A stretch of DNA of 64,000 nucleotides from an uncultured virus (IMG/VR IMGVR_UViG_3300012954_000006) (IMGVR_UViG_3300012954_000006); one strand, 5' to 3'. Positions 1 to 45,601 are shown, numbered from the stretch's first letter. Notes: generated by a model from the sequence alone, not told the origin. Numbers and translations are program-made.

Positions 1-2113
1 TCAAAACGGCTGACATTATCTTCACTCGTGCTGTGGTACTATGACAAAATCTCATTAAATCATTAGCATCATCAATTAAAAGATACCCTTGAATAGTGAT
101 GTTTACATTACCTAAATAAGCATTCTCACTAAACAACTGCTTTGAACTCCTAATACTGGGAAAGTATTTTTTTAGATAGCAGAACTCATAAATACTACCT
201 TTGCGTGTTTTGTTTTTTGCTGTTAAAAAGACAAAAGGTATTTCTTGAAACAAATCCTTAACAGTAGTTTTGAAACGCCTAAACACTAAATTATCTTCTT
301 CAATACAGTCTATTGTCTGCTCACTCAAAACGTCCTCAATATTAATTTCATCCTTGCCAAAAGTCACGACGATAGCCTCCTCCGCTTTGTATGTCTCAAA
401 GGTTCGGAATTTTCTTTTTGTATGAGCTTTTCTTTTCTGCTTTGGCTTACCTAGTTGTTTACTGACATTAATCTCGCCTAATACGATGTCCTTTTGTGCT
501 ATCTCTTTCTTTAACTCTGCCACATAAGACCTGTTATTGTTGCAATAATAATAAAAGGATTCCAATACTTGTAATTCTTTTTGTGCTACTTCATCAAAAT
601 GTCTTTTTCGTGATAGGTGGTCTTGATAGGTAAAAGGATAGTATCTTACACCACGCCCAATAAGCTGTACTTCTGAAACGGTACTAGCTGCGACTTTCTT
701 TGACTTAGATACGGTCTTTTTCTCATTGTTATACAACATCACAATATCGTACAGGTTCTGCACGTCCCACCCTTCTGTCAATCGCTTACAGGTAAACACC
801 GCAGTAATATGGTTGTGTGGCTGCTCTAAACTATTCAACATAGCATCTTGTTCAGCAGTAGTTTTTTCTTTGCCTACCTTAGTCTTTATATAGCGAAGCT
901 TTGAATGCGTCCGAATACAATTACTAGCATCAAACCTTGCCTGTGCAAATACTAACAAGTCTTGAAAGCCATCTTTGCTGCCAAGCAAATGATGTAATGC
1001 GTCGAAAAGTTTATTCTTACCTTTGACATATCTTTGCTTATTATATCCTAAGCTCTTCAAAAAAGCAAAGCTTTTTACATTTAGTTGGCTAATGGTTTCA
1101 ACAAACAAGTGATAGTCACTTTCTATGTTATCCGTTGGATGTGTTTTCATTTCGACATACTTGCTACGAAACAATATGATTGGTTTAAATTGATTAATGC
1201 CATGCTGCTCTGCTAGTCGCACTCGATACCAATTCATCAATAATGCTAGTAACATTCGTTCCCTTTTAGCTAAGTTGTTGCTCATTAGATGTACGGTTTT
1301 GGTATATCCATCTAACATAAACCGCTTCATGTCGTACTTGTAAAATACTTTGTCAGCATACTTCGCCACGACTTGCTTGTGCTTAGGGATAGTCGCTGTT
1401 AATTCTAGCAGCACGTTATTGTTTTGACTAGCACCGTTTTTGCGTAATAACATTTCGCATATTGTGTATTCCCAACTTTTATTGATACTGTCCCTGCTCG
1501 CATTGTTTTTTAGTAAATCTAGTGTACTGTTAGTCTTTTTAGTAATAGTATTAAAGTGATGAGCTTCATCTGCTAGTATCACTAAGTTCAAAGCCTGTAA
1601 TTCTTCTAGCGAGTTACTATTCTCTCTAGCAGCATGAATCTCGTTATGCAGTTTATGAATGGATGTTATCCGAATTTCCATGTCATCTGTATTGGTATCA
1701 AAATAATCTACATGACTAATATTTACCTGCTTACCATCTACATAGACATCCTTAAATAAGGCTTTGTCATAAGCATATTCAGATACCGCTAGATTGCCTT
1801 TCGTTTTTTCTAGTATGTTTTTTTGATTAGAGATAAACAGAAAGTGGCGATACCCTTGTTTGTAATAGTATAGCATCATACATGCCATCATTAAGGTTTT
1901 GCCTCCACCTGTGGCAATATTACAAAGCAAATGCGTTGGCGTATTGTATTGATGTATGTGTTGTTGATAGGCGAGAAAGTGGAGGAGGCAATCCTCTTGG
2001 TAATGGAATAGTGGATAACGAATGTTGCTAGTAATATAATTAGGGATTTGGATAGGGTCATTTTGGCTTAAATGGCATTGAATATCTTGTAATAATGTTT
2101 TTTGTTCAAACAT
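1..2113 (-). CDS. Type III restriction Res-subunit-like SF2 (DEAH) helicase, 3' end runs off window
   Basis: Manual translation from ATG at 2113 (MFEQKTLLQDIQ...): Walker A ATGGGKT, ILADEAHH, LTEGWDVQNLYDIV, EVQLIGRGVRYYPF; the segments checked, including the last codons before base 1, are in frame without a stop; not in ORF track because it has no stop in the window. Confidence 0.85.
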   Translation of the reverse strand, partial: MFEQKTLLQDIQCHLSQNDPIQIPNYITSNIRYPLFHYQEDCLLHFLAYQQHIHQYNTPTHLLCNIATGGGKTLMMACMMLYYYKQGYRHFLFISNQKNILEKTKGNLAVSEYAYDKALFKDVYVDGKQVNISHVDYFDTNTDDMEIRITSIHKLHNEIHAARENSNSLEELQALNLVILADEAHHFNTITKKTNSTLDLLKNNASRDSINKSWEYTICEMLLRKNGASQNNNVLLELTATIPKHKQVVAKYADKVFYKYDMKRFMLDGYTKTVHLMSNNLAKRERMLLALLMNWYRVRLAEQHGINQFKPIILFRSKYVEMKTHPTDNIESDYHLFVETISQLNVKSFAFLKSLGYNKQRYVKGKNKLFDALHHLLGSKDGFQDLLVFAQARFDASNCIRTHSKLRYIKTKVGKEKTTAEQDAMLNSLEQPHNHITAVFTCKRLTEGWDVQNLYDIVMLYNNEKKTVSKSKKVAASTVSEVQLIGRGVRYYPFTYQDHLSRKRHFDEVAQKELQVLESFYYYCNNNRSYVAELKKEIAQKDIVLGEINVSKQLGKPKQKRKAHTKRKFRTFETYKAEEAIVVTFGKDEINIEDVLSEQTIDCIEEDNLVFRRFKTTVKDLFQEIPFVFLTAKNKTRKGSIYEFCYLKKYFPSIRSSKQLFSENAYLGNVNITIQGYLLIDDANDLMRFCHSTTARVKIMSAVL

Positions 2114-2138
2114 AAATCATTGTCTTTAAATTAAAACT

Positions 2139-2756
2139 TCACAATATATTTTTTATTTGTGCTGATTTTGTGTGATAAGGAAATAAAATCTCGTGCAACA
2201 ATACTTCTTTTTTAGTACCATCACTCAATTGTATCATTATTTTTGGTTTTGTATATATCGCTTTTTTGACATCAGGAGTACCATTACCATCTACTATATT
2301 TATTATTCTTACTTTTTTACCTAACCAAGTGACCGTTACTTTATAGTGCCACGCCATTAATTCACTATGACAACTCAATGTATAGCTATGTCCTACATAT
2401 TGATTGATGTCTTGAAAAGTCAAATTGTCAGGCTCTGGTTCGATGTAGAATGTTTTGATATAGTTGTATGTTTCATTAAACGTATCTTTAGACATCCATT
2501 TAATACTTCTTGTTTCAGAACCATTAAACTCAATGGCTACTGGTTGATTATCTAATAAGTAAAGAACATTGCCTATATACAGGCCGTCCTGATAACGTAA
2601 GTCAATATGATAAGCTATTAGCCTATTTTGTAATTTTTCATCATCCCATGAGCCGCCTTGTAGCCAATCGAAATGATAAGCTAAATCAGATATGTCAAAA
2701 ATACTCTGATTGTCTTTTGATGTATCGATGTTTTGTATAATTTCTTTTACAGTCAT
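2139..2756 (-). CDS. hypothetical phage protein
   Basis: 205-aa ORF, ATG start, co-oriented and tightly packed. Confidence 0.7.
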   Translation of the reverse strand: MTVKEIIQNIDTSKDNQSIFDISDLAYHFDWLQGGSWDDEKLQNRLIAYHIDLRYQDGLYIGNVLYLLDNQPVAIEFNGSETRSIKWMSKDTFNETYNYIKTFYIEPEPDNLTFQDINQYVGHSYTLSCHSELMAWHYKVTVTWLGKKVRIINIVDGNGTPDVKKAIYTKPKIMIQLSDGTKKEVLLHEILFPYHTKSAQIKNIL

Positions 2757-2809
2757 ATTATTTTAATTATATGTTTATCAAATGTCTTTATGGAACTTAA
2801 ATGCAATCT

Positions 2810-3445: not shown

Positions 3446-3457
3446 ATCATCAATACT

Positions 3458-3916: not shown

Positions 3917-3919
3917 TTT

Positions 3920-4612: not shown

Positions 4613-4835
4613 AGTTATATTATTGGTATTTTTTGAAACTTTTAATTGTTTGTTTTAAGATATTATCATTAAGCAATGTAATATCTTTTTGATGATAAGA
4701 TTTAAAATAATATGTATAATAAGCAGGTGTAATGTATCATTTCCTTTGCCTCAAACCTTAATGAAACATCAAACACTACTAACACTTTCTAGTATTTTTT
4801 GTATTTCGCTTATCATGTTTTATTTTTAATACAAT

Positions 4836-5508
4836 TTATTTTTTAGAATGATTTCTATACAATAAATTTTCTCGAGGCGACAGTATTGTTAAGTTACCTT
4901 CACATATCCAACCGTCTTCCAAGTTACCGATTAAACTCTTACTACAATCAGTCCAATGTACTTTTGCACGTGGTTCTAGCCCTCCTTCATTAGTATTTAT
5001 ATATAATGCAATAACTTCCTAAGCTTTTAGTGTTGTTGTCTTCTACCCTGTCACCAATGACGCAAGCATTTTTGACATTTATATCACTTTGCATTCCAAC
5101 TATCTGCTTATCCACACATTTCGATGGCAGTTGTTTTGCCAACTTTTGTTCTAATTCTATCAATGATGAAAGCATCAATAGTTGTTTTTTTGTAAGATTT
5201 TGAAATAACTCTCTACTTTCTTCGTTATCAAATTGCTTACTATAATTCAAGTAAAAGTGATACAACCGTTCCTCTGTAATACCATTTGACGCTAATTGCA
5301 AAGTTATTAAATCATCATTTATATCTTTCGATTGTAAAAAAGCAACCATGCAATCATATTCCGAATCATTGCTGTCATTAAAAACCGATTCTTCATACTC
5401 CTCATATAAAGGCTTGTAAGTATCATACATTTCGTCATAGGGCATTGCATTAAATACATCACTATATTCTCTTAGTAACATGCAAAATAAAAATTCGCTA
5501 TAATCCAT
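4836..5508 (-). pseudogene. frameshifted hypothetical gene (ORF 4990..5508 plus +1-frame tail)
   Basis: Removing one A near 5016 continues ...KSLG-VIALYINTNEGGLEPRAKVHWTDCSKSLIGNLEDGWICEGNL... to TAA at 4836. Confidence 0.55.
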
Positions 5509-5528
5509 TGGTTCGTTTTTTTAGTAAG

Positions 5529-7005: not shown

Positions 7006-7057
7006 GACTTTCAGTCGCCAAAGTAACCTACCTACTTCTAGTAGGTAGTATTTAAGT
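7006..7057 (-). repeat. palindromic element family C, copy 1 (IS200/IS605-end-like)
   Basis: Minus strand ACTTAAATACTACCTACT-AGA-AGTAGGTAG-GTTACTTTGGC-GACTGAAAGTC; shares arm with 10033 and 47291. Confidence 0.7.
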
Positions 7058-7068
7058 TTAACGATACA

Positions 7069-7099
7069 CAAAGATACGTTTTTTTTTGATTTTTTCATA
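7069..7099 (-). promoter_or_regulatory. Bacteroidota-type promoter with phage upstream motif
   Basis: TATGAAAAAATCAAAAAAAAACG-TATCTTTG; TAnnTTTG box at 7069-7076. Confidence 0.75.
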
Positions 7100-7120
7100 T
7101 TTATTATTAAAAAAATAGCA

Positions 7121-7804: not shown

Positions 7805-9421
7805 TTAGATATTTCTTGTATCATACCCCACCCATTGTTTACCTTGAGCAGATTTAATATTAAACAACTGCCATACTTTGTCATCTTTGAAAGTGATATG
7901 TGCTGTTCCTTTCTTAAATATTTGAATGGCAAAAAAATCACTATATGCCGTGCTATCCCTCTTCAACAATCGCCCACTAGGTACATTTCCTATGCGTCTA
8001 AAAAGGCGAGTTAAAGCAACGTCAGTCTTATATATGGTATCGTAATCTTTGCCTGTAATTCGACACAATGCCTTGTCTATATCAGAAAAGAAAGCTCCGT
8101 CATTACTTCCCCAATCAAAAGTAAACTCATTAGTCCAGCCTATTTTTACGCAATAAGGTATAATGACTTTTTTGTTTACCTTGTAGCAGTCATTGGTTTT
8201 CCATCCCTCCCAATGGACTTTATTGTCGGCATGAAAGGCACACATTTTATCGAAAGCCTCCACGATAACCTTATCTAATATTGCATCAGCGTTCAACATT
8301 ATCATTTCCATAAAATGATAAATATTATGCTCATTAAACTGCATTTGAGCGGTGTTTCTTTCATGTTTTGCCATCATATCTCGCAATCCACTGCTTAACT
8401 TACTTTTAATATTACCATCCCTAAATAGCTTATCCCATGCTATACTGTTTAGTTTTGTGACAGCAGTATTATAAATATTTGTTTTACTGTCTGCATCGAT
8501 ACAAGTAGCGTCTAATGATTTTTGTAGTACCTTTAATGCTGTGTCGCCATAATCTCTTACAAAAGGCTGAAACATTACTTCTAGCTCTCCTACTTTTTCA
8601 ATAATATTATGTACTACTCTTTTACATTCTTTGTAATGAAATAGCCACGCTTGTATGTCTCCTTGTTTGACAGCTAACTGCTGTTGCATATTATCGTCAA
8701 AAGCAAGACTGTCTTTTTCTGCCTGAAAGTCGAACGCTTGCGTAAAGTCAAATGCTCCTTTCTCAATACTTTTTGTGAGCCTAACTATGACCACATCCAC
8801 ATTAGTCTTGCGTTCTGCATCCTGAAACGCTTTGCCAATATATTCTACACTTCCATGTTTCTCAATAATAGCCTTTAGCTGTTGGCGTTCTTTTGTGTAT
8901 GGGTTGTCAATCGTTTCTTTGTTGAGGAGGCAAGCAATGTCCCCACTCTTTAAAATGTGCCACGCTTTTAATAGATGATGCACGCCTGCATTAAAAGGTG
9001 GGTTCATTAGTATCAAGTCGAAAATCAAATCGCTACTAAGTGATAAGAAATCAAAGCCTATGATATTACAGTTATACATTGCCTTTCGTAATACATTTTG
9101 TCGCTCTGGGTCTATCTCGCAAGCGTAGTAATTTCTGTTGTGCAAACGCAATGTTTTACTTAAATATCGCAAGATATGCCCTTCTCCAGCCTGTGGGTCA
9201 AATATATTTTGGTATCTATCTTTCAAATGTACGCTAATAGAATATTGCCTATCATCAATCACGCCATCACAAAAATAATACCGATGGCTATCTAGGTGCG
9301 TCTCATTATATTTTTGTAGATACGCTTTAAGATGTTTATTATTTTCAAGATAAGGCATTACCATTTGAAAAGCGATGCGTGGACTCGTGGGATAAAACTG
9401 TTCTTTATCTGTTGTATTCAT
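7805..9421 (-). CDS. DUF4942-domain class I SAM-dependent DNA (N6-adenine) methyltransferase
   Basis: QFYPT, motif I FDPQAGEG, catalytic MNPPF, C-terminal GWKTNDCYKVNKKVIIP and FKKGTAHITFKD. Confidence 0.85.
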   Translation of the reverse strand: MNTTDKEQFYPTSPRIAFQMVMPYLENNKHLKAYLQKYNETHLDSHRYYFCDGVIDDRQYSISVHLKDRYQNIFDPQAGEGHILRYLSKTLRLHNRNYYACEIDPERQNVLRKAMYNCNIIGFDFLSLSSDLIFDLILMNPPFNAGVHHLLKAWHILKSGDIACLLNKETIDNPYTKERQQLKAIIEKHGSVEYIGKAFQDAERKTNVDVVIVRLTKSIEKGAFDFTQAFDFQAEKDSLAFDDNMQQQLAVKQGDIQAWLFHYKECKRVVHNIIEKVGELEVMFQPFVRDYGDTALKVLQKSLDATCIDADSKTNIYNTAVTKLNSIAWDKLFRDGNIKSKLSSGLRDMMAKHERNTAQMQFNEHNIYHFMEMIMLNADAILDKVIVEAFDKMCAFHADNKVHWEGWKTNDCYKVNKKVIIPYCVKIGWTNEFTFDWGSNDGAFFSDIDKALCRITGKDYDTIYKTDVALTRLFRRIGNVPSGRLLKRDSTAYSDFFAIQIFKKGTAHITFKDDKVWQLFNIKSAQGKQWVGYDTRNI

Positions 9422-10032: not shown

Positions 10033-10071
10033 ACTTAAATACTACCTACTGAAAGTAGGTAGTATTTAAGT
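10033..10071. repeat. palindromic element family C, copy 2
   Basis: Perfect 18-bp arms ACTTAAATACTACCTACT-GAA-AGTAGGTAGTATTTAAGT. Confidence 0.85.
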
Positions 10072-10180
10072 TCTCTGTTTTATATTATCAACTGCTTTCA
10101 TAAAAAGCTCTTTAAACTTTTCTTTTCCAATGCTTTCGGCTAAAACCAATTTCAGTTCATCCATCAATACACTATCTTTG

Positions 10181-11805: not shown

Positions 11806-12468
11806 TTATTTTTTTATTAATTGAGTGATTTCAAAAACCTTGTCTAACCATCCTTCCATAATGATAGCTGGCGAATGAGTTGTGCAAATGAGTTGTGCAT
11901 TGGGATTGATTTTCATAATAGCACTAATGACTTTCCGCTCCCACTCAACATGCAAAAACAAGCCTATGTCATCTATTAAGAAAATGTAAGATTCATTGTT
12001 TTGTAGGTAAGCAGACATCAAAATCATTAATAGCCTCTTTTCGCCTGCCGATAAGGTATCTAATGGAATAACTACGCCACTACTGTCCAATAGCGTAAAA
12101 CCTTGCTCATTTAAAACTGCTGATTTTCGTGTCCACCTAAACAATTCATTAATAAGTCTTAAAAAATCGACTTCTTGAATTGTCTGTATTTCTCGTTGAG
12201 TAAAACACATCAAAACATCATTAAATTCAGTTTGGCTGTCAATAAAGCAAACATTTCTAACATGATTGCCTTTTGAATAATAGGTAATCTCTACATTATC
12301 ATTCACTTGCTTAACATTATGATATATAGCATTTAACAATGTGGTCTTTCCTGCACCATTAAAACCTCCCAATATATTAATATTACTGTGTAGTTGCCAT
12401 TCTATGGAGTGTCTATGTAAGAAATCTGTAATTATCACTTTCTTGATGGTCGCATTTAACCTGTTCAT
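11806..12468 (-). CDS. ABC-type AAA_21 ATPase (AriA/PARIS-like), orphan
   Basis: Walker A GFNGAGKT, signature LSAGEK, Walker B FLIDD, LHVEWE, H-loop TTHSP. Confidence 0.8.
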   Translation of the reverse strand: MNRLNATIKKVIITDFLHRHSIEWQLHSNINILGGFNGAGKTTLLNAIYHNVKQVNDNVEITYYSKGNHVRNVCFIDSQTEFNDVLMCFTQREIQTIQEVDFLRLINELFRWTRKSAVLNEQGFTLLDSSGVVIPLDTLSAGEKRLLMILMSAYLQNNESYIFLIDDIGLFLHVEWERKVISAIMKINPNAQLICTTHSPAIIMEGWLDKVFEITQLIKK

Positions 12469-14059: not shown

Positions 14060-14596
14060 TTAAATATTCATGTCACTAGGACAAACGAGTTTAGCGATAG
14101 CCACACCTGCTAGTGACTTAATTCCTTTTTCCGTGAGCATAAACCTACGCCAAGCTTCTTTCGCTTTCCCTTGCTCAATTTTCTTAAACTCGGGGCCTTT
14201 ATTACTTCTCCTTGATGTCCAATTCAACTCATAAAAACCAGCAGCACGAGGCGTGACGTATATCAATTCAAACACATTATTTAGATAGTAAAAAACAATA
14301 TGCTTATGCCCTGCTATTTTTGGATTATACTCCTCTGGAATAGTATCTTCTATCACATATACAGGAAACCGACCGTCTTGTGGAGGCGTGATAGAGACAA
14401 TGTTTCGTGAATGGTCAATATCATATTCAACATCAAACATTGAAAATGTTTTAGTTGTATCTAGTGACTCTATATCATTGCTAACAGGTTTACCTAGATA
14501 TTTACTTACCACATGGAGATATGGTAAAGCTTGTTGCAACTCATAAGTGGTTGTGAGTGCTACTCGTATGTCATTTATTTTTAATGAAACTTCCAT
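14060..14596 (-). CDS. hypothetical protein, paralog triplet member
   Basis: ELQQALPYLH / SLDTTKTF / LTEKGIKSL. Confidence 0.65.
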   Translation of the reverse strand: MEVSLKINDIRVALTTTYELQQALPYLHVVSKYLGKPVSNDIESLDTTKTFSMFDVEYDIDHSRNIVSITPPQDGRFPVYVIEDTIPEEYNPKIAGHKHIVFYYLNNVFELIYVTPRAAGFYELNWTSRRSNKGPEFKKIEQGKAKEAWRRFMLTEKGIKSLAGVAIAKLVCPSDMNI

Positions 14597-18500: not shown

Positions 18501-18522
18501 AGTATTTCTTTTTTTGTATATA

Positions 18523-18553
18523 CAAATATACAATTTTTTCTGATTTTTTCATA
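18523..18553 (-). promoter_or_regulatory. Bacteroidota-type promoter with phage upstream motif
   Basis: TATGAAAAAATCAGAAAAAATTG-TATATTTG. Confidence 0.75.
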
Positions 18554-18674
18554 ATTTTTGACTTAAAATATTTTAAATCATTATGGCAGCTTTTGATTAA
18601 ATTTATTAATATAAAAATACACTTCTTATATTCAGTAAACCCTAATATCAATAAATGACATTGTAAAATTATAA

Positions 18675-20061: not shown

Positions 20062-20097
20062 TTTATTCTATTGATATATTTTTTAAAAGTGCTTGCT

Positions 20098-20128
20098 CAA
20101 AGATAATGCTTTTTTTGATTTTTTCATA
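20098..20128 (-). promoter_or_regulatory. Bacteroidota-type promoter with phage upstream motif
   Basis: TATGAAAAAATCAAAAAAAGCAT-TATCTTTG. Confidence 0.8.
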
Positions 20129-20138
20129 TTTTTTGTGC

Positions 20139-20765: not shown

Positions 20766-23120
20766 CTATCCGCAAAGGTTGTTTATTAAGTTAAGTAATG
20801 TATTCTCAAGCTCACTAGCATTCTCTATTGCAAAGTAATTATTGGAACTTGCTATATTAGCACCGTTATTGGTAATTGCTGTCAAGAAACTACTGTTTGG
20901 GTAGTTTAATCCAATCGTATATATGTTGATTACTCCCGTTGTTCCAACATTTCCTCTAATTACAGTATCAACATAATTTATAATTTCTTGCTCATAAGTA
21001 AGCGGTGGCGTTAATGGGTCGTTGGGCGAAACATTAGGAGCACCGTCTGTAAATAAAATAATTACTTTACCATTATTGCTTCCAAGCAACAATTCATTGT
21101 AGGCAATTTGTATAGCACTTAGTATATTAGTTGCACCAGAAGCATTTAAACTGTTGATACTAGACACTAAGGTAGCATTACTGCTGCCTAATGCCGCTTC
21201 TAGATTAGCATTCTCATTAAAAGTAACTAGGGCAGCAGAGTTAGCGCTTGTATCAATATCTAGTGCATTTACGAAACTAATACTTGAACTTTTAATACTA
21301 TCCATACAAACGCCTCCAGAGTAGTCTGATTGAGCATAATACTTAATGACAATAGGAAGTGCATTGTTTAATGTATTAAATACAGGAAAGGCTGTCACTG
21401 TCCAAGAGGATGTAGTACTTAAATTAACTGCGATATTCTCTTCACTAGTAACATTATTAATTTGCATTAAATAAGTTGAATCCGTAGATAAATCTCCTAC
21501 ATCAACTACATTTGTTGAGAAATCCCAACCACTGGATAATGTCTTGATAAAATCAGGAGGGTTGAGTATGGTAACAGTTGATATATCTATGCAAGTAGGT
21601 GTGGAAAGGCTACCTGACCTATCTAATACCAATACTGCATCAACAGTATCACACAATTCAAATGAATCATTAGCATTACAAACTTCGTCATCTGTAACAA
21701 ATAGAGTATATTCTCCAATAGGCTGCCCAGCAAGATTAAGTGTAAAAACATCTTGAGTTGTTGTTCCACTTAACACCGTAACATTGTTAGCATCATTAAC
21801 TATATAAGTGTATATAGGCGAGCCATTAGTAATAATAACATCTAAGTCAGTATTTACCGTATTTGATATTTCAGCAGTTACAGACATAATACATAACTTT
21901 TCCACTACTACAAGAATATTGCACCCAAACACATCCGTAACTCCCAAATAGTAATTTCCAACAGGGTAACTACTAATATCGACAACAAATACATCAAGGT
22001 TTGATATTCCATTATCTAACAGTAAATTTGAGGCATCGTAAAGTTCCCATGTAAATGGGGTAGCATTATTAGGCACTGAAGAGTTTTGGCTCATAGTAAC
22101 ACTCAATAAATCACCATCATTTAATATTTGATAAAACAAGCTTATTCGACAAATATCAAAATTATACTGTGCTACACATCCTTGACTATCTGTAACACAT
22201 AGAATGTAATTGCCAACAGGTATTGCAGCTATATCAATAATTCCTGTATTTAAAGATGTTGTATTGCTAAAAACTATCGCTTGATTATTAATATCTTTTA
22301 TTTCTACAAGATAATCAGCTACTCCATTGGTAATATTTACAAGTAACTCAATATTGTTACGCCCATGCACTACTGCATTAACAATCATTGTGCAAGACGG
22401 TATTTCAAAGTTATAAGTTGATTCGCATCCATCCGCATCCATAACAGTAAGTGTATAGCTGTCATTAGCTAAGGTAGAAATATCAATAGTATAATTAGCA
22501 GTCGTAAAAACATCTGATAGCACCACAGTAGTATTATTGCTTATTGTGTAGTTGTATTGCGGATTACCTCCTGTAAGTGTGATGTTTAAATCTGTGCCTA
22601 CAATTTCGCTAGTCATTGACAACAAACAAGGCGGTGCTGTTACAACTCCCTCTATAATAAAAGGACAGTTAAATTTATCTTTAACACTTAATGTGAAAGC
22701 ACCTTCTGGTACATTACTGATAATATAGGGGAAAGTAGTGATAACGCTTGTTGTAGGCGTACCAGCATTTGGCTCAAACAAAATAGTATATGGTGGCTGT
22801 ATCGCACCGCTAACGATGCCATCGCCACCAATAGCTGTTAATTGTATTTCGCCCAAACCACCAATGGCAGTAGGCTGAATAATGTTGTAATTAACGTAAT
22901 ACTGCTCGCAACATCCATCTAGTGCTTGAAATGGATGATATACAATAATATCGTTTGTTAAGGGGTCTGTCAAGCAAAGGATGTATTCCCCATCTGCAAG
23001 TGTGACAGATATAGGAGTTGTGGAAGCTGTACCAGATATGATAACGATGTCCGTCAGAGCATCTTTAATACTGTAATTAACAGGCAAGGTAACGCCATTG
23101 AGTTTTATTGTTGTCGCCAT
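20766..23120 (-). CDS. SprB-like repeat + vWA domain protein (putative virion adhesin/fibre)
   Basis: About 5 repeats of GG.P.Y.Y...G.Y.L.VTD..GC; MIDAS DRSGS, GATNILSAI, ILFTDGAPN, IYTIGL; likely start MATTIKLNG at 23120. Confidence 0.75.
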   Translation of the reverse strand: MATTIKLNGVTLPVNYSIKDALTDIVIISGTASTTPISVTLADGEYILCLTDPLTNDIIVYHPFQALDGCCEQYYVNYNIIQPTAIGGLGEIQLTAIGGDGIVSGAIQPPYTILFEPNAGTPTTSVITTFPYIISNVPEGAFTLSVKDKFNCPFIIEGVVTAPPCLLSMTSEIVGTDLNITLTGGNPQYNYTISNNTTVVLSDVFTTANYTIDISTLANDSYTLTVMDADGCESTYNFEIPSCTMIVNAVVHGRNNIELLVNITNGVADYLVEIKDINNQAIVFSNTTSLNTGIIDIAAIPVGNYILCVTDSQGCVAQYNFDICRISLFYQILNDGDLLSVTMSQNSSVPNNATPFTWELYDASNLLLDNGISNLDVFVVDISSYPVGNYYLGVTDVFGCNILVVVEKLCIMSVTAEISNTVNTDLDVIITNGSPIYTYIVNDANNVTVLSGTTTQDVFTLNLAGQPIGEYTLFVTDDEVCNANDSFELCDTVDAVLVLDRSGSLSTPTCIDISTVTILNPPDFIKTLSSGWDFSTNVVDVGDLSTDSTYLMQINNVTSEENIAVNLSTTSSWTVTAFPVFNTLNNALPIVIKYYAQSDYSGGVCMDSIKSSSISFVNALDIDTSANSAALVTFNENANLEAALGSSNATLVSSINSLNASGATNILSAIQIAYNELLLGSNNGKVIILFTDGAPNVSPNDPLTPPLTYEQEIINYVDTVIRGNVGTTGVINIYTIGLNYPNSSFLTAITNNGANIASSNNYFAIENASELENTLLNLINNLCG

Positions 23121-23253
23121 AAAAGATAATGATATAATTGAAGTGTCAAATTTAATACCCTTATCTAAGATATGCAAATACACCAAGAAAACACTCGTTT
23201 GTTTAGCTACTTTATGCAGTTACTGCTTTAATATTATCTAGTAATAACATTGA

Positions 23254-23630: not shown

Positions 23631-24164
23631 TTAAGTAAGTATTTTTTTAGCAAGTTCTGAAAAAGGAATAGTAGGTGTATGATTTATTTTTGATATTTTT
23701 TTAACAGCAATACCATCTGTGATACTGCTTATCATAGGAAATCGCAAGCAACGGTCTAACTCAACATCGGTTAATATTCGACTATTAGGATTTCTAAAAT
23801 CAGTCAATGCAGTGTATTTGCCTCGAAAAGCAAATTTCAACTCTATATAGTAACTAGCTAACCAACAAACATAAGCTACTAATTCATTAATGTATTGGTC
23901 ATTAAATGCAGCCGTTATAATCATCTCGTAAACATCTGACAATGCTATCCTCGGTTCACGATTACACTTTGCTAACTGCTTGAGTGCAATTCGGTTAAAT
24001 GTGCCTTGTAGCATAGGGCAAGTATCAAGTTCTTGTTTTTCAAATATAGTTAAATCTCGTCTGTTGGGGTTGAGGTAACTGGAAGTATTGAGATGTTTTT
24101 CATGGTATTCATAAACAGCCTTTTGGCACGCTTTAGATATCCAGCAAACAATATCTTCTAACAC
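23631..24164 (-). CDS. hypothetical protein (5' end entangled with tandem repeat)
   Basis: 177 aa from GTG; the upstream ATG in the repeat is out of frame by one base. Confidence 0.6.
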   Translation of the reverse strand: MLEDIVCWISKACQKAVYEYHEKHLNTSSYLNPNRRDLTIFEKQELDTCPMLQGTFNRIALKQLAKCNREPRIALSDVYEMIITAAFNDQYINELVAYVCWLASYYIELKFAFRGKYTALTDFRNPNSRILTDVELDRCLRFPMISSITDGIAVKKISKINHTPTIPFSELAKKILT

Positions 24165-24173
24165 CTCTTTAAA

Positions 24174-24309
24174 TTGTTGTTATCCATTATTTTGTTGTTA
24201 TCCATTATTTTGTTGTTATCCATTATTTTGTTGTTATCCATTATTTTGTTGTTATCCATTATTTTGTTGTTATCCATTATTTTGTTGTTATCCATTATTT
24301 TGTTGTTAT
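24174..24309. repeat. perfect 18-bp tandem repeat x7.5
   Basis: (TTGTTGTTATCCATTATT)n read directly. Confidence 0.95.
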
Positions 24310-24313
24310 GTCA

Positions 24314-24664
24314 TTAATGATAAATCAAGCATTTCATTCCAAGCATCCTCAAAAGAATACTCGACCTTTGTATATTCAATATCTTCATATTCAAAATATT
24401 TATTAAGCTCTCGTCTAAAATACGAGCCTGATACAAATTGCCGCCGCAACTATGGTCTAAAGCGATGTTATTTTCTGTAATATATGCCGTTACACTACAT
24501 CCTGTTGATGAGTTTATATGCTTTTTAAAGCAAATGTCCCCATTTAAATGTGCATAACAATCTAATGTGCCTCTCTCAAATCCCTGCTCTATCATGTGGG
24601 TAAATTGCTCATCTGATATGTGAGCAATAAAAGGATTGTTATTGTGAAAACTTTTTAATGCCAT
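24314..24664 (-). CDS. hypothetical protein, C-terminus probably frameshifted
   Basis: Alternative frame from ~24420 gives YFRRELNKYFEYEDIEYTKVEYSFEDAWNEMLDLSLMT*. Confidence 0.5.
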   Translation of the reverse strand: MALKSFHNNNPFIAHISDEQFTHMIEQGFERGTLDCYAHLNGDICFKKHINSSTGCSVTAYITENNIALDHSCGGNLYQARILDESLINILNMKILNIQRSSILLRMLGMKCLIYH

Positions 24665-25794: not shown

Positions 25795-26526
25795 CTACAA
25801 ATCTGTTTTTTTGAGTGACTCAACATATTGTTTGTTAGCCAAACTGTCCAATACTAGAGCATCGCTAATCTCCTTTAATGACAGCGAAAACTCCCTATAA
25901 ATATTAATATTATTATCTAGCAACTGATAATAAACAGCGTTATCTTTATTTGCTTGCATGAATTCTTCAAAGCCAGTAACAGCATCGCTATACTGTTTTT
26001 GTAATGCTTTGACTTTATCCAAAGTACTCATTTGTTGTTCTATTAAAGTAGCATTCAATATTGCAATCGCCTTTTCTGCTTGCACTTTTGTCAATCCTAC
26101 TTCGCTATCCACTCTAATAAAGTTATTTCTTTGCCAGTACAGCATATCACTATCATCATCAAGAATAATGTATTTTTTAAACGATTGTATCTTGCATCCT
26201 AACAATGATTTATTGTCAGATAGCCATTGATGTATTTCACAGCCACGAGGCACATTATCATTACTATTGCTAAAGTTTAATTGCTTCGTAACGCCTATAA
26301 AATCAGCGTAGATGCCATTTTCATTAAACATACTTACAATATCATCAAGGCTATTATTTAATCGCCATGTAGAGGAAATAACAATCTTTGCCTTTGTTTG
26401 CTTTATGATATGCTGCAAGGCTGAAACAGCAGACTTGGTAAGTATTTTATGCTTTTTACCTTTTTGCTCTCTCAACCATTTTTGCGACAACAACACACCA
26501 TCAATATCAAGAAATATAATTTTCAT
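25795..26526 (-). CDS. HAD-family phosphatase (Swiss-Army-knife RNA-repair HAD_SAK_2-like) with coiled-coil tail
   Basis: MKIIFLDIDGVL, IVISSTWR, RGCEIHQWL, YIILDDDSDML, GLT. Confidence 0.85.
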   Translation of the reverse strand: MKIIFLDIDGVLLSQKWLREQKGKKHKILTKSAVSALQHIIKQTKAKIVISSTWRLNNSLDDIVSMFNENGIYADFIGVTKQLNFSNSNDNVPRGCEIHQWLSDNKSLLGCKIQSFKKYIILDDDSDMLYWQRNNFIRVDSEVGLTKVQAEKAIAILNATLIEQQMSTLDKVKALQKQYSDAVTGFEEFMQANKDNAVYYQLLDNNINIYREFSLSLKEISDALVLDSLANKQYVESLKKTDL

Positions 26527-30657: not shown

Positions 30658-30680
30658 AGTATTGTTATTTATATGATACA

Positions 30681-30712
30681 CAAAGATAGTATTTTTTTTG
30701 ATTTTTTCATAT
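30681..30712 (-). promoter_or_regulatory. Bacteroidota-type promoter with phage upstream motif
   Basis: TATGAAAAAATCAAAAAAAATAC-TATCTTTG, preceded by hairpin AGTGCTAA..TTAGCACT and T-tract. Confidence 0.8.
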
Positions 30713-31163
30713 TTTTTGTGCAAAAAAATAAGTGCTAACAAAAATTATATTGCATATCTTTATTAGCACTACTGTTTTAAAATGGTAAGATTCCGTCATC
30801 ATTACTTGCTATTTGTTGCTGTGACCCTCTAGTAATATTATCTCGCTCTATTTTTCTAGCAAAAGCAATGGCATAGTCAAATATCTTGCGTAAGGTGCTA
30901 AAATCAAGTTCCTTTATTGCATCATTTTTAGTGTACCATTGATGAGGAACTTTGTGTGTTTCATTCCACCATGAGCCATTTTGATAGGTGTAGCCAAACA
31001 AATCAAAGACAATATCTTGTTGCACTTCTATACTCAATGATTTATCTAGCCTGTTAGGTGTATTTGTCAATATCTGTAACTTTTTTACATTAGTAGTTTA
31101 TTGGTAGTATTACTACACACAATACTCTTTATACAGTAAAACATGTTAAATTTAGGTTCACAA

Positions 31164-33707: not shown

Positions 33708-34418
33708 TTACCATTTAAATGATGAATAATTGAAATTATCATTTTCCAAATATCGCCCTGCATCAAACCCTTGCCTTACATATTTGGCACGATAGCGAAC
33801 TTCGCCTTTGTGTTCCATTTGCCAAACAGCACCCTCTGGAAAACCACCCACACACTTAGCAAATACAGAGCCTTTATTAAGCTCCGCTTCTAGATCTGCA
33901 AAATCGACACCGCTGTGTTCACAATAAAGTAGTCGAGGAGGATGTAAGCCTACCTGTTCTACTTTTTCTTTCATCTGGAAGTAATGGTTTTCTTTATTTT
34001 GGCTATCAAAAATACCTAGTACCACCAACAGGTCTATTTCGTTTTTAATATCGTATATTGTACCATGCCGTTGTAATAGCCATTCACAAACACAACGCTC
34101 CCCATCTTTTAATAACAATAAAAATTTTAAAGCGTATTTATTGACGAAATTTACAAAATATTGTAGATGTAAAAAAGGAGCATCGCAACACAAATAGCCA
34201 TTTCGCTGAATACATATTAATTCATACCCCTTTCGTAGTATAGTAGTATTTGAACCATCATATTTTTCAGTTACAATAACAAGGTCTTTTTTGCACTTTA
34301 ATCGCTTTTTTCCTATTAGGTAATCGTTCTTGGGCAAATCAATATTCCTGTCTGCTGTGCCTACTTTTGAGCCATACAAATGACCTATACTATAGTATTG
34401 CTTTCCGTAAGGTTTCAT
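33708..34418 (-). CDS. ATP-dependent RNA ligase family protein (Rnl2-like)
   Basis: Motif I VTEKYDGSN, motif IV PEGAVW, motif V RAKYV. Confidence 0.8.
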   Translation of the reverse strand: MKPYGKQYYSIGHLYGSKVGTADRNIDLPKNDYLIGKKRLKCKKDLVIVTEKYDGSNTTILRKGYELICIQRNGYLCCDAPFLHLQYFVNFVNKYALKFLLLLKDGERCVCEWLLQRHGTIYDIKNEIDLLVVLGIFDSQNKENHYFQMKEKVEQVGLHPPRLLYCEHSGVDFADLEAELNKGSVFAKCVGGFPEGAVWQMEHKGEVRYRAKYVRQGFDAGRYLENDNFNYSSFKW

Positions 34419-35738: not shown

Positions 35739-38075
35739 TTACGCACCGCAAGCTTCACAATCTGGATTGTCGATGCTACATACCTGCCCATAATCATTTT
35801 GAGCAACGTTGTTTTTATCTACTGTAAACTTAATCGCACTAGCTGCCGCTTCCGTTCTTAGGTAGTACATACCTGTTTTTAATCCTTTTTGCCAAGCATA
35901 GTAATGTAGTTTCATCATTTTATTGACAGTAGCGTTTTGCATAAAGATATTCATGCTTTGGCTCTGGCAAATAAAAGCTCCTCTATCTGCTGCCATATCT
36001 ATCAAGTCGCCCTGCTTGATTTCCCAAACTGTTTTATACAAAGATTTCATTTCGTCTGATATAGGCAGATTTCGTACAGAGCCATTGTCAATTAATATCT
36101 GGTCTTTGGTGGCTTTATTCCATAACCCCAATACCATCAAGTCTTTTATCAAGTGTTTATTAGCCACCACATAAGACCCCGCTAACGTATTTCGTACATA
36201 GACATTAGCGGTATATGGCTCAATACATTCATTATTGCCTAATATTTGTGATGTGGTAGCAGTAGGCATCGGAGCGAGGAGGAGACTGTTTCTAATGCCA
36301 TGTTTGGCAATGGCTTTGCGTAAGTCCGTCCAATCATATTTCAAATCTTTGTCGGCTACGCCCCACATATCAAACTGCAAAACACCTTTGCTGACAGGCG
36401 AACCCCAATAACTGCTATATACACCACGCTCTTTGGCTAACTCGCAAGAAGCAGTCAAAGCACCATGATAGATGGTTTCAAAAATCTGCTTATTGAGTAG
36501 TTTTGCCTCCTCGCTATCAAATGGCAGTCGTAGCATCGAAAAGGCATCAGCCAAACCTTGTACACCTACGCCCATAGGACGATGTCTAAAATTAGAATTT
36601 TTGGATTCTGGTACAGGGTAATAGTTAATGTCAATAATATTATCTAAGTTTCTAGCAACCACTTGTGTTACTTGATGTAATTCCTCAAAATCAAATTGAC
36701 CATCTTTCACAAATTTAGATACGGCAATAGAAGCCAAATTACAAACGGCTATTTCATCTTTAGATGTATGTTCTAAAATCTCGGTGCAAAGATTTGAACT
36801 CTTGATAACACCTAAATTTTTCTGATTAGACTTTCTGTTAGCATGGTCTTTATATAGCATAAAAGGCATACCTGTCTCTATCTGTGTTTCACATATCTTT
36901 TTGTATAGTTTCCTTGCTTTCACAACTTTCAATGCCTTGCCGTCTTGCTCATACTGCTCATACAAAGTCTCAAACTCCTGCCCATAGCTCTCATTTAAGC
37001 CTTTACATACGTCTGGGCAAAACAATGACCAATCGCCATCCGCTGCTATACGCTTCATAAATAAATCAGGCATCCACAAGGCATAAAACAAGTCTCTCGC
37101 TCTCATTTCTTCTTTTCCGTGATTCTTCTTTAAATCCAAAAAGTCAAAGATGTCAGCGTGCCATGTTTCGAGATAAACCGCAAAAGCACCTTTTCGTTTC
37201 CCCCCGCCTTGGTCGACATATCTAGCAGTATTATTGAACACTTGTAACATCGGTACGATACCATTTGATTCGCCACCTGTACCACGAATATAGCTTCCTT
37301 TGGCTCTGATATTGCTAATGCTCAAACCAATACCGCCTGCTGCTTGTGAGATACTGGCACATTGCGACAATGTGTCGTATATCCCTTTGATACTATCCTC
37401 TTGCATTGTCAATAAAAAGCAAGATGACAACTGTTGTTTTTTAGTACCTGCATTAAATAGCGTTGGCGTAGCATGAGTGAAGTAGCGTTGAGACATCAAG
37501 CGATATGTCTCTAATGCTTTATTGGTATCACTGCCATGTATCGCAATAGCAGTACGCATAATCATGTATTGAGGGCGTTCTACTATATGCCCATCAATGC
37601 GGAGGAGGTAAGAACGCATCAAGGTCTTAATGCCCATGTATGTATATTGATAGTCTAGGTCTTGATTGATAGCGTCATCCCAGACATCTGCATACTCCCT
37701 AACTAACGCCATGTAGCCTGCACTCAAAAGACTGCAACTGCCTAAAGCCTCGCTTTTGTGCTGATATAACGCTTCCATCGTTTCGCTAAAACTGTTGTTG
37801 GTTTGTTTATGTAAATTAGATACCGTAATACGAGCCGCTAAAGTGGAGTAGTCAGGATGTGTTTGTGACAATGCTAACGACTCCGCTGTTTCTGCTGCTA
37901 ACTCATCTAGTTTAGACGTAGGTATGCCATCATACAACCCCCCAATAACTTCTTTACACAAGAGGACAGTATCTAACATTGGCGACAGTCCATCTGACAA
38001 ATGTTTGATACGTTTTAATATCTTATCGAAGGACACCGCCTCTCGTGTGCCATTTCTTTTTATAACTTGCTGCAT
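35739..38075 (-). CDS. nrdA: ribonucleoside-diphosphate reductase class Ia alpha subunit
   Basis: ATP-cone [55 protein letters not shown]-terminal CEACGA; start MQQVIK at 38075. Confidence 0.97.
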
Positions 38076-38186
38076 AGTAATATTCTTATTCTTTGAATGA
38101 ATGCTCATAGGCAAAATGATAATTATAGTATTAGGATATGGTTATGTAATAGCGATAGCAATGTATGTTACTATCGCTCAATATAT

Positions 38187-39167
38187 TTAGAAGTCAAGCG
38201 AACCGCCAAAGTCAAGAAGCACATCATCATCTTTTGTAGCAACATTAGGCTTTTGATATTCGCCTACTCGCTTCTCGAAAAAATTAGTTTTTCCACTAAG
38301 GCTTATTAACTCCATAAAAGGAAAAGGATTGGTCGTGTGATATACTTTAGGCACACCCAATTCCTGTAATAGTCTATCAGCGACAAACTCGATATACTGA
38401 CACATCAACTTGGCATTCATACCAATTAAAGATACAGGCAAGGCCTCACTGACAAACTCTTTTTCAAACTCCACAGCATCTTGAATGATTTGCTGCACTT
38501 CCGCTGGGGCTAACTTTTCTTGCAACATACTGTATAGCAAACAAGCGAAGTCACAATGCAATCCCTCGTCTCTGCTAATGAGTTCGTTGGAAAAGGTAAG
38601 CCCTGGCATCAATCCACGCTTTTTGAGCCAAAAGATAGCACAAAAACTGCCGCTAAAAAAGATACCTTCTACTGCTGCAAAGGCTATCAGGCGATGTGCG
38701 AAACTCGGTGATTCGTCTATCCAACGCAACGCCCAATCAGCTTTTTTCTTGACACACGGTAAAGTCTCTAAAGCGTTAAATAAATAGGTTCGCTCCCGCA
38801 CATCTTTGATATAGGTATCTATAAGCAAACTATATGTCTCTGCATGAATATTCTCTATCGCCACTTGAAAACCATAGAAACAACGAGCTTCTGGAATTTG
38901 TACCTCACGCATAAAATTCAACACTAAGTTTTCGTTTACGATGCCATCCGATGCTGCAAAAAAAGCAAGGACGTGTTTAATGAAATGACGTTCATTATCA
39001 TTGAGTTTATCTTGCCAGTCGGTCATATCTGGCGCTAAATCAATCTCTTCGGCTGTCCAAAAACTAGCCTCCGCTTGCTTGTACATTTCCCAAATCTTAT
39101 CGTACTTGATGGGAAATAGTACAAAACGCTGTTTATTTTCTTTTAAAATTGGTTCTTTTGTGTCCAT
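38187..39167 (-). CDS. nrdB: ribonucleoside-diphosphate reductase class Ia beta subunit
   Basis: [58 protein letters not shown]. Confidence 0.97.
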
Positions 39168-39171
39168 CTTG

Positions 39172-39828: not shown

Positions 39829-39836
39829 AATTTGTT

Positions 39837-40586: not shown

Positions 40587-40648
40587 TATAATCTTTTATC
40601 AGAACTCATGGAAATAGTTAGTATGAGCATTACCTTTGTGACCTAGCA

Positions 40649-40742
40649 CAAACATAGGTATTTTTTTTGGTTTTTTCATATTTTATAATAAATTTCTTGC
40701 ACTAAAAGTAAAAAGCTTGAACCAATAACAGTTCAAGCTTTC
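40649..40742 (-). promoter_or_regulatory. terminator + promoter cassette
   Basis: AAAAGCTTGAAC..GTTCAAGCTTTT hairpin, then TATGAAAAAACCAAAAAAAATACC-TATGTTTG. Confidence 0.75.
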
Positions 40743-40761
40743 ATAAAACAATTTATACAAA

Positions 40762-41877: not shown

Positions 41878-42017
41878 TATGTTTTTATTTTACTAATTAC
41901 TGATACACAAAGATACTAAATTTCACGGTGTTTTTCTAGTTTGTTCATATTTTTTTGCAAAAAAAGGTAGCACAAATATTCTTGCACTACCTTTTCAAAT
42001 ATTTCCCCTCTACTATC

Positions 42018-42779: not shown

Positions 42780-42780
42780 G

Positions 42781-43254
42781 TTATTGTTTTTTTAGTTTGT
42801 AATAAGTTTCTCTGTTATCATGGATAATGCCTCGCAAATTAGTAGATATTTCTATCCAAGCTTCATCTTTATTTTCCCATGCAGCAAGGTTAGTACGCTT
42901 GGGCGTTGACAAAAGTCCTGTAACAGCAAAAAGAGGGTCATAGCTGCCATTGTACACTTCTTTATCTAATGGCTTCGGAAATAACGTGGTAATGGAAGAA
43001 CGCAAAGAACCCGCTACACTTCTAATATACCCATTGTTGTAGTCAAAATCCCACAGCAAATCATCTGTCACAATAATAATATGTAGTACCCAATCGTAGC
43101 CTTCAATATGTTCTTGAAACGCCTCATTGGTAGAATATGTTATAATAGGGTCTTTAGTAAACCTTTTGGTAAGAGCAAGTCTTTTCGTCATTTTTTTAAC
43201 AAAAGGACTTGCCATGTCTTCTTCTGAAATAATAATATTGATTAATAGTTTCAT
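42781..43254 (-). CDS. degenerate TIR (TIR_2-like) domain protein
   Basis: Aligns by eye with bacterial TIR: IIIVTDDLLWDFDY vs LLVSxDFLASDY; WENKDEAWIEISTNLRGII vs WxNxDEAWxxVxxGIRxxI; catalytic Glu absent. Confidence 0.55.
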   Translation of the reverse strand: MKLLINIIISEEDMASPFVKKMTKRLALTKRFTKDPIITYSTNEAFQEHIEGYDWVLHIIIVTDDLLWDFDYNNGYIRSVAGSLRSSITTLFPKPLDKEVYNGSYDPLFAVTGLLSTPKRTNLAAWENKDEAWIEISTNLRGIIHDNRETYYKLKKQ

Positions 43255-43265
43255 TTTTTATTTTT

Positions 43266-44189: not shown

Positions 44190-44258
44190 ATTCTTTGTTC
44201 ATTACTGTTGTTGATTTTTTATTACTTAGTAGCAATACCACTTATAAGGCTTTTTATT

Positions 44259-44909
44259 TTACTCATTTTTTCTTTTTTTCAGCGTTTGGATTGAATTAAA
44301 TATATCTATATCAAAATCATCTAACAGCGGCATTACTTTTTCGTTGTCACACTCGTCAGACCACAAATAAGCTTTAGATATGTAAGAAGGCTCTTGCCAA
44401 AAATATCTAGGCATTTCAACAGTACGCAACCCATCGGCAGTTTCCAAAGGGAAGTTAGACAATTGACACTTATACCAAAAGGTGTTATAGCGATGCTTAC
44501 TTGATTTTTGCAACGCCACCAGTTCATGCAAGTCAAAATATTGCTTTAAAAACGCCACTCTCTCGCTTGCATCAACTATCTTTATGTTTGTACCATGTAC
44601 CGACTTCCACCAATCTAGCAGGTATTTTTGCCACCAACGGATATATGTTGTATTGAATACTTTAGTTGTATAAGCAAATGAATGAAATACATCTTGAGTA
44701 AGTAGGTTATTCCAGTCCTTTGATTTATGCCTATCAATACCTAATCTAATGACTAATATGTCTTCGTCTAATAGTAAGCCATTCTTTAAGATAACCTCCT
44801 CTAATACAAAAACAAACCTTTCTACTGCTGTTTTTTGCTTATTATATTCACGCTCAATAATGGGTACTTCTCGCCCAAATATCGATTTTATTTCTTGTGT
44901 CACACTCAT
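44259..44909 (-). CDS. C-terminal half of a response-regulator-like protein (receiver domain absent)
   Basis: GLLLDEDILVIRLGID..S.DW, RWW...DWW, ERV, FW..C, DGL, WQEPSYIS recalled from bacterial REC-fused proteins. Confidence 0.55.
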   Translation of the reverse strand: MSVTQEIKSIFGREVPIIEREYNKQKTAVERFVFVLEEVILKNGLLLDEDILVIRLGIDRHKSKDWNNLLTQDVFHSFAYTTKVFNTTYIRWWQKYLLDWWKSVHGTNIKIVDASERVAFLKQYFDLHELVALQKSSKHRYNTFWYKCQLSNFPLETADGLRTVEMPRYFWQEPSYISKAYLWSDECDNEKVMPLLDDFDIDIFNSIQTLKKRKNE

Positions 44910-45601
44910 TTTAAAACGTTTTTCACATGATTAATGTACTTATCAAAGTCCTCTATCTCATAAAAAGACAAGTGCTGGCGAATCTTATCCAACGCTTTCT
45001 TATTATCAATATTATTTACAATGTAATTTTTAGATACATAGCCAGTTGTTTGAAATGGATATGGGTGTCGCAAGATGCAAAAGCACAAACATGCCAAAAC
45101 TTTGAGGAGGAATGAACAGAAGGAACATTTATAGGCTCAAAGCTGAAACCATATCGCTCATTAATTAATGTCACTCGCTCTTTGGCTGTTAAAAGCTGTA
45201 TTGATTTAGATTCTTTAAAGTTGTCACTCCACCAATCAAACAGCCCTTCTAGCCACCAAAAGCCACCGATTTTATAATCATGGTACACTCCTTGATATTT
45301 ACAAGCTTTCAATTCTTCTAATAGGCTTTTCCACTCATTAAGATTTGATGACCTTTTAATACCAAGTTGTACTGCCAAAAGCTGTTGCTACATCAAGATC
45401 TGTCAATATGTAATAGGTGCTTTAATATAAAGTTAGCTTTTTCGAGAGTGGTGTCAAAATGGTAAAAATACTGCTGTGCACCTTCTAATATGTGTCGGTG
45501 TTTTCTTCACAAGCCATCAACTCTCTTAGACTAGCAGTCTCGCTAATTCTTTTAAGAGATGCAGGAATGTGTTGTAATTTTAAATTTTTGTATAGTTTCA
45601 T
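44906..45601 (-). pseudogene. fragmented paralog of 44259..44909
   Basis: Pieces in different frames: LAVQLGIKRSSNLNEW..WWLEGLFDWW..ERV..FWHVC and HPYPFQTTGYVSKNY; in-frame stops upstream. Confidence 0.65.

Follow-up and report, generated by a model that had tools for sequence, protein, structure and literature searches.

Lone homologues of bacterial defence subunits in a phage-like element, two of them with lost ATPase motifs, may serve to jam the matching host systems

Why would a phage-like element carry single subunits of bacterial defence systems apart from the partners with which such subunits normally work? The question is raised by a stretch of 64,000 nucleotides (nt) from an uncultured virus (IMGVR_UViG_3300012954_000006), here called the window, which belongs to a parent contig of ~193 kb (192,865 bp) and is the scope of every statement of absence made below. 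In a preliminary description of this DNA, five loci were listed as partner-less homologues of defence-operon proteins, namely a type III Res-like helicase, an AriA-like ABC ATPase, a Walker-less AAA_21 protein, a TIR domain without its glutamate (Glu) and a set of response-regulator-like halves, and these were read together as decoys. Three of them (Res, AriA and a HEC-01A-like protein) were confirmed as partner-less, the TIR similarity was seen in a protein atlas only and the response-regulator halves gained no support. The results suggest that the phage keeps lone, disabled defence subunits as a means of jamming the matching host systems. Such a decoy role is plausible chiefly for P0002, the AriA-like protein, as judged from its motifs and from structure prediction.

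P0002, a mini AriA-like ABC ATPase of 220 amino acids (aa), is encoded on the minus strand at 11806..12468 and was matched by the PADLOC AriA profile PDLC04164 at 1.3e-43. An AlphaFold2 (AF2) model built with 16 relatives reached a predicted local distance difference test (pLDDT) score of 82.6, and when this model was searched with Foldseek the top six matches in the Protein Data Bank (PDB) were AriA chains (E down to 9.7e-11, template modelling score TMq 0.62-0.70), followed by PtuA; sequence identity to the solved AriA chains was 13-17%. The closest sequence family is 26-35% identical over nearly the full length. The relatives of P0002 are 227-376 aa long, and at least 545 were found in genome contigs, mostly of Bacteroidales. 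By profile match and modelled fold, P0002 is assigned to the AriA-like proteins, as the preliminary description had it.

The alignment with the 16 relatives was used to read the state of each ATPase motif. Walker A, the signature, the H-loop and a C-terminal GW.DK were kept in P0002, as were 43 of the 57 columns with at least 80% consensus among the relatives. The Walker-B sequence DEPE, invariant in all 16, is DDIG in P0002, and the only residues that are invariant in the relatives yet altered in P0002 are four (E167D, P168I, E169G and Q177E). Among relatives on viral contigs DEPE was read in 75 of 80, the other five being unreadable, in a scan that was partly seeded on DEPE and is therefore biased against copies without it. 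Walker A and the signature are 96 residues apart in P0002 compared with 118-255 in 14 relatives, so that its middle module is the shortest.

The neighbourhood of the gene also differs from that of its relatives. In 17 of 19 genome loci inspected, an open reading frame (ORF) of 314-362 aa lay directly downstream of the AriA relative on the same strand, and DUF4435 was detected in all ten downstream ORFs tested. PADLOC called AriA plus AriB in 4/4 gene pairs. In the window, a relaxed six-frame search with a custom AriB hidden Markov model (HMM) found no AriB remnant (best E-value 0.46). The place and size of AriB are taken by a 334-aa ORF, P0160 (10797..11801, minus strand), which begins 4 nt downstream of the P0002 gene and remained without a Pfam, PADLOC or NCBIfam match when the threshold was relaxed to E<=1. 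P0160 was considered as a diverged AriB and rejected, hhalign giving a probability of 0.18% against 12 AriB proteins with no DUF4435 match; its last 55 aa share 44% identity with an ORFan at 4990-5508.

Two copies of P0002 were co-folded with an AriB from Bacteroides, and the complex scored 0.73 compared with 0.01 for the best of three controls; that mark was attained in 116 of 157 solved complexes and in 2 of 215 mismatched pairs. Runs agreed in at least 91% of contacts, with partner pLDDT of at least 85. In the predicted interface, residues 3-30 of AriB lie on P0002 residues 29-35, 173-175 and 197-216, placing the AriB N-terminus over the ATPase heads, and P0002 keeps 12 of the 14 conserved columns of this surface. 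The predicted docking surface for AriB is thus kept in P0002.

Published PARIS work describes AriA as the antitoxin, which holds the AriB nuclease sequestered at the interface of the ATPase heads, with AriB residues 1-53 lying over the ATPase sites in the solved structure, and places the binding of Ocr at the coiled-coil (CC) interface of AriA. In that work, the hydrolysis-dead Walker-B mutant E393Q of E. coli AriA does not bind Ocr, is insensitive to it and keeps AriB bound; AriA K39A is loaded with AriB that is not released; and PARIS defence is stated to require AriA ATPase activity. If P0002 behaves in a similar way, it would still bind ATP and dimerise and would retain the head surface for AriB docking, the catalytic Walker-B Glu and most of the middle module (the trigger sensor in E. 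coli AriA) having been lost. It could then sequester the AriB of the host, or act as a poison in host AriA dimers, such that the nuclease would never be released. That P0002 is a trigger-blind orphan antitoxin, or a dominant negative, directed against PARIS-type systems is the favoured reading and is put forward tentatively, as a real possibility that falls short of being probable. We infer AriB binding in vivo, loss of hydrolysis and an effect on defence from homology, motif states and the predicted interface.

Upstream in the same gene string lies P0003 (14601..15716, minus strand), a degenerate HEC-01A-like pseudo-ATPase of 371 aa. PADLOC HEC-01A matched it at 7.2e-21 through residues 1-217 only, corresponding to profile positions 1-221 of 464, compared with end-to-end matches of 1e-132 to 1e-146 for true HEC-01A members, and no Pfam AAA_21 match was obtained. 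All four motif sets found in 10/10 true HEC-01A proteins were lost: Walker A (G.N..GKSN) is replaced by KDAEGVFSS, and no signature (LS.GT), EEPE-type Walker B or H-loop is present. No relatives of P0003 were found among 5.8 billion clusters. From this partial profile match P0003 is taken to be HEC-01A-like, a degenerate ATPase of the AAA_21 type, and the earlier claim of a Walker-less AAA_21 protein at this position was upheld. Assignment of P0003 to the AriA family was tried with hhalign and rejected (probability 0.35%), the short aligned segment being the H-loop region and not significant.

In 6 of 10 loci, and in 5/5 of the closest subfamily, the gene after HEC-01A encodes HEC-01B, a protein of 153-223 aa. 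No HEC-01B remnant was found in the window in a relaxed six-frame search with a custom HMM (best E-value 0.35). The ORF that begins 4 nt downstream of the P0003 gene, P0161 (178 aa, 14060..14596, minus strand), is not HEC-01B and had no PADLOC or Pfam match at E<=1. Since P0002 and P0003 are both partner-less, unlike their bacterial relatives, and have both lost ATPase motifs, the two fit the idea of a decoy, and motif-dead P0003 may do to HEC-01 what is proposed for P0002 and PARIS.

The layout of these two loci admits another explanation, in which the ATPase-like genes are the sensors of phage-borne defence or superinfection-exclusion modules with swapped effectors (P0002 with P0160, P0003 with P0161, and Res with a Mod encoded elsewhere). 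The positions and lengths of P0160 and P0161 agree with it, since they sit where relatives have AriB (314-362 aa) and HEC-01B (153-223 aa), and complete PARIS and type III systems do occur on viral contigs, AriB being present in 27 of 80 AriA loci and Mod in 5/5 Res loci. PARIS, however, needs the ATPase of AriA, yet P0002 is without the Walker-B Glu and P0003 without every ATPase motif; neither P0160 nor P0161 could be assigned to an effector family with four libraries, and P0160 shares its tail with another phage ORFan. Such modules are considered rather unlikely here.

The third confirmed locus lies at the edge of the window. The P0001 gene (2..2113, minus strand) has its start at 2113 and is cut by the window edge, so that the N-terminal 704 aa of a type III Res-like superfamily 2 (SF2) helicase are visible. 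These were matched by PADLOC REase_III at 7.1e-76 (profile positions 21-640 of 873) and by Pfam ResIII at 4.3e-21, and are 41-48% identical to type III restriction enzymes of ~930 aa, many from Bacteroidota; a metagenome scan with the protein found no copy above 48% identity. Aligned with 14 relatives, the protein keeps helicase motifs I, II (DEAH), III and VI, all in invariant columns. The nuclease motif PD..EPK of the relatives falls in alignment columns ~881-903, past residue 704 where the window ends. On these alignments the gene is judged to be a true type III Res homologue.

Mod was found upstream of Res in every relative that could be judged (81/81): 71/71 in metagenomes, 5/5 in genomes, where N6_N4_Mtase and TypeIII_RM_meth were both matched upstream, and 5/5 on viral contigs. 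The metagenome count was made with an HMM built from the five genome-relative Mods and is from 80 loci, 71 of which were positive on the same strand; the other nine have 828 bp or less of upstream sequence and were not judgeable. A Mod HMM found no Mod in the window in a relaxed six-frame search (best E-value 0.2), the downstream side of the gene lying outside the window. The phage Res-like gene is therefore without an otherwise universal upstream partner, and the description of a lone type III Res-like helicase holds for the window. A Mod-less Res might compete with host Res for Mod. In the Bacteroidota type III loci an extra gene stood between mod and res in 4/5, of the RhuM family in three and Bro-N in one.

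The same genes could also be relics or exapted pieces of captured defence operons with no role in immunity, kept neutrally or for an unrelated use such as a Res-derived DNA translocase. P0003, P0004 and P0005 (the last two being the ORFs claimed as TIR and as a response-regulator half) are without detectable relatives, motifs have been lost from P0002 and P0003, and phage genomes often carry ResIII-type helicases (PHROG 16, 'DNA helicase', 1.1e-14), all of which agrees with such an origin. It is harder to reconcile with the concentration of the P0002 changes in one motif among otherwise well-kept conserved columns, or with a Res-like protein that, over nearly its whole visible length, resembles Mod-linked Res and not a generic helicase. 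Frames of 220-704 codons have in addition stayed open at 33% GC (guanine plus cytosine), where stop codons should be frequent. A relic origin is likewise considered rather unlikely.

Several points weigh against the decoy reading and are gathered here. The co-fold was run with custom alignments and in a 2+1 format unlike that of the calibration, and the Bacteroides AriB used has an AriA of its own that is only ~30% identical to P0002. PARIS complexes have already been solved (8UX9, 8V46-48), so that the co-fold pass may reflect memory and shows likeness, not binding. According to Burman et al., AriB toxicity depends on prior association with AriA, and capturing AriB need not therefore protect. 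The change from Glu to Asp in the P0002 Walker B is conservative, and residual hydrolysis is possible. The DDIG form of P0002 and P0003 itself are singletons, each with one member on one contig. ORFs of roughly the size of the missing partner stand 4 nt downstream of both genes, which would fit swapped effectors. As to partners encoded elsewhere, none was present in the window, where 83 further ORFs were searched with PADLOC in addition to the relaxed six-frame HMM searches; they may lie elsewhere on the ~193-kb contig, about two thirds of which is outside the window. Finally, the name phage was given because of PHROG matches in 12 of 90 window ORFs, one-strand packing and similarity of the ribonucleotide reductase (RNR) genes to Cellulophaga phages, whereas no hallmark gene of virions or of replication is present in the window. 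Taken gene by gene, the decoy interpretation fits the AriA-like and HEC-01A-like genes; it finds no motif loss to rest on in the visible part of Res, and its other two members are unproven or unsupported.

The claimed TIR protein, P0004, is a 157-aa ORFan (42781..43254, minus strand) with a possible TIR-like fold. In the protein atlas its feature scores against TIR clusters were 0.91-0.93, but the 157-172 features shared were in most cases fewer than the 170 that true members typically have. The atlas model (predicted template modelling score, pTM, 0.81) had template modelling (TM) scores of 0.66-0.73 to clusters mostly with TIR_2 (8/10 rows); feature scores and TM were counted as one source of evidence. 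P0004 had no match in Pfam, PADLOC, PHROGs or NCBIfam (Pfam and PADLOC to E<=1), phmmer against 1.84 billion representatives found no real relative, and phmmer against the PDB gave nothing relevant. Multi-stretch phmmer matches to very long proteins (up to 3951 aa) were rejected as compositional. Aligned to 30 Bacteroidota TIR_2 domains with hhalign, P0004 scored 13.4, a value exceeded among 30 shuffles (up to 16.5), and its single-sequence AF2 model had a pLDDT of 34.7. Glu is the catalytic residue of TIR domains. None occurs in P0004 residues 52-98, the expected position having been set by spacing in TIR_2 domains and not by a reliable alignment, and no PADLOC Thoeris protein was found in the window. 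Of the Glu-less TIR there remain the atlas similarity and the missing Glu, to which HMM, phmmer and hhalign searches lent no support.

The response-regulator claim fared worse. The two proposed halves are P0005, a 216-aa ORFan at 44259..44909, and a 63-aa ORF at 44906..45097, both on the minus strand. Neither these nor the ORF at 45016-45378 had a REC or output-domain match in Pfam, PADLOC, PHROGs or NCBIfam. In the atlas P0005 scored at most 0.85 to mixed, inconsistent families and its model had a pTM of 0.21. The statement that most of the five loci had lost catalytic motifs likewise applies to two of them.

Transcription of these genes from host-sigma promoters had also been proposed. Sigma-70-like sites were at chance level (83 compared with 84.6+-9.5 expected, and 35 compared with 31.8+-5.8). 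An intergenic motif of ~42 nt was instead found in eight copies (7062-7103, 18516-18557, 20091-20132, 30674-30715, 40643-40684, 41901-41942, 51671-51712 and 57052-57093). Its approximate sequence on the coding (minus) strand is AAAATATGAAAAAATCAAAAAAA..TATCTTTGTGTATC, ending in a TATCTTTG-like TAnnTTTG, which we take to resemble the Bacteroidota -7 element; the motif is likely a promoter class of the phage-like element. The minus-strand copy at 18516..18557 stands at the head of the gene string that runs from 18533 to 10797 without an intergenic gap of 50 nt or more and holds the P0002 and P0003 genes. Two families of perfect intergenic hairpins were also seen, one at 7019-7058, 10033-10072 and 47292-47331, the other at 45684-45731 and 46206-46253, where a T-run follows and the form is terminator-like.

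With these results the widest version of the idea can be weighed, in which all five loci, including a Glu-less TIR and the response-regulator halves, are captured defence subunits that act in concert as decoys against several systems and are expressed early under host-type promoters. It draws on the three verified partner-less homologues, on the placing of P0004 near TIR clusters by the atlas and on other genes of counter-defence type in the window (an orphan DNA methyltransferase, and an RNA ligase with HAD_SAK_2). Against it stand the unsupported response-regulator claim, a TIR claim that fails every sequence test, the chance-level sigma-70 sites and a Res without loss in its visible part, and it is held to be very unlikely. 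A narrower form of the decoy reading is unlikely too, though less so: one gene string would carry two natural 'dead-switch' ABC-ATPase mimics, a trigger-blind mini-AriA and a motif-less HEC-01A, that lock the partner nuclease or effector of host systems in an inactive, sequestered state, and together with the Mod-less Res these would point to subunit capture as a general route against OLD/ABC-type systems.

The window is probably an accessory-gene stretch of a ~193-kb phage-like element with a Bacteroidota host, likely a giant phage, a reading drawn from the composition described here. All long ORFs are on the minus strand and tightly packed, with GC of 0.30-0.41. The five claimed genes lie within 1.4 standard deviations of the window genes in GC and in GC at third codon positions (GC3), and therefore none resembles a fresh insert. 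Pfam matches were obtained for 11 of 85 ORFs scanned. Named families in the window comprise both subunits of RNR (large and small), RNA ligase, HAD_SAK_2, M78 peptidase, a DUF4942-containing DNA methyltransferase and proteins with VWA domains or WG repeats; no tRNA genes were found.

Near-identical DNA in the phage collection was limited to ~200 bases of RNR, which are 80% identical to Cellulophaga phages. Viral contigs were searched for exact 60-base matches to the window sequence and gave none. Viral-contig scans with single proteins (Res-like P0001 and AriA-like P0002) gave no relatives, tblastn against phage records gave weak or partial matches only, and two large window ORFs were without any phage match. 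DNA identity of ~80% to Cellulophaga phiST and its relatives was restricted to the RNR large and small subunit genes (35739-39167), whose GC of 0.40 is above that of window genes (z=2.6).

Some other ORFs of the window are recorded here. Two very large ORFs carry a VWA domain, one at 59415-63998 (>1527 aa, running off the window) and one at 20766-23186 (806 aa). The first had a weak match, under the cut-off, to the secretion-system C-terminal sorting domain Por_Secre_tail (1.6e-4), which presumably points to a Bacteroidota host. Neighbouring ORFans at 53192-54064 and 54150-55007 (290 and 285 aa) are paralogous, being 56% identical (E 2e-113). An 18-nt unit (TTGTTGTTATCCATTATT-like) is tandemly repeated ~8-10 times at 24133-24327, in the gap upstream of the ORF at 23631-24164. 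HAD_SAK_2, the RNA-repair 'Swiss Army Knife' family, was matched at 25795-26526 (5.4e-30) and an RNA ligase at 33708-34418 (2.3e-10); the two could give an RNA-repair capacity that counters tRNA-cutting defence nucleases. The ORF at 7805-9421 encodes a 538-aa methyltransferase (MTS domain) fused to DUF4942 and matches PHROG 32703 at 1.8e-67. A role for it as type III Mod was ruled out by the PADLOC and Mod HMM searches, and it is a probable orphan anti-restriction methylase.

The principle that an orphan defence component can serve against defence is already published. Orphan viral cas genes have been reported to work as anti-CRISPRs (Katz et al., bioRxiv 10.1101/2023.06.24.545427), and DarTG1 is countered by AdfN, an orphan DarG-like antitoxin (PMC11825919). 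The literature searched contained no such report for AriA, HEC-01A, Res or TIR, and no phage AriA decoy, phage TIR decoy or 'subunit poisoning'; mimics of AriA or TIR do not figure in the EVADES preprint passages covered. Against PARIS, that literature yielded a single phage counter-measure, a phage tRNA reported for phage T5, and none was sought specifically against HEC-01 or type III Res. If the decoy reading is true, P0002 would be a ready-made protein inhibitor, with the AriB-docking face kept and the hydrolysis switch and sensor module lost, and a natural experiment confirming the E393Q mechanism. The use of orphan defence genes as anti-defence would extend from CRISPR and DarTG to ABC-ATPase/TOPRIM systems, and more such genes could be sought by a simple genomic signature, namely a subunit without its partner whose motif is disabled and whose interface is retained.

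P0002 is most readily compared with the AriA of PARIS (E. coli B185; 8UX9, 8V45-8V49). The two have in common an ABC-ATPase head in which Walker A, signature and H-loop are present; among HMMs as among folds, AriA matches P0002 best; and AriB is predicted to dock over the heads as in the solved complex. P0002 differs in its size (220 aa compared with 53-55 kDa for AriA), in a coiled-coil or middle module that is largely gone and in having no adjoining AriB gene. Like the engineered AriA E393Q it is without the catalytic Glu, the change being natural and of DEPE to DDIG instead of a single E to Q. With the short AriA-AriB pairs of Bacteroidales and other bacteria (PDLC04164 plus PDLC02983) it shares the domain order and the C-terminal GW.DK; those AriAs are 227-285 aa long with DEPE intact and a DUF4435 AriB next to them, whereas P0002 has neither.

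P0003 resembles HEC-01 (a PADLOC candidate system of an AAA_21 protein, HEC-01A, with HEC-01B) in its N-terminal 217 residues and in a layout that can be aligned, and differs in lacking all ATPase motifs and HEC-01B and in its length (371 aa compared with 407-507 aa, ~40-135 shorter). The Res-like protein resembles the Res of type III restriction-modification systems (Mod-Res operons) in its 41-48% identity and in keeping all helicase motifs, and differs in having no upstream Mod; the nuclease C-terminus of the phage copy lies beyond the window. Compared with orphan viral cas genes and AdfN, the families differ, and AdfN is an active enzyme whereas P0002 is a proposed disabled binder; the likeness is that a phage keeps a lone defence component for use against the same system.

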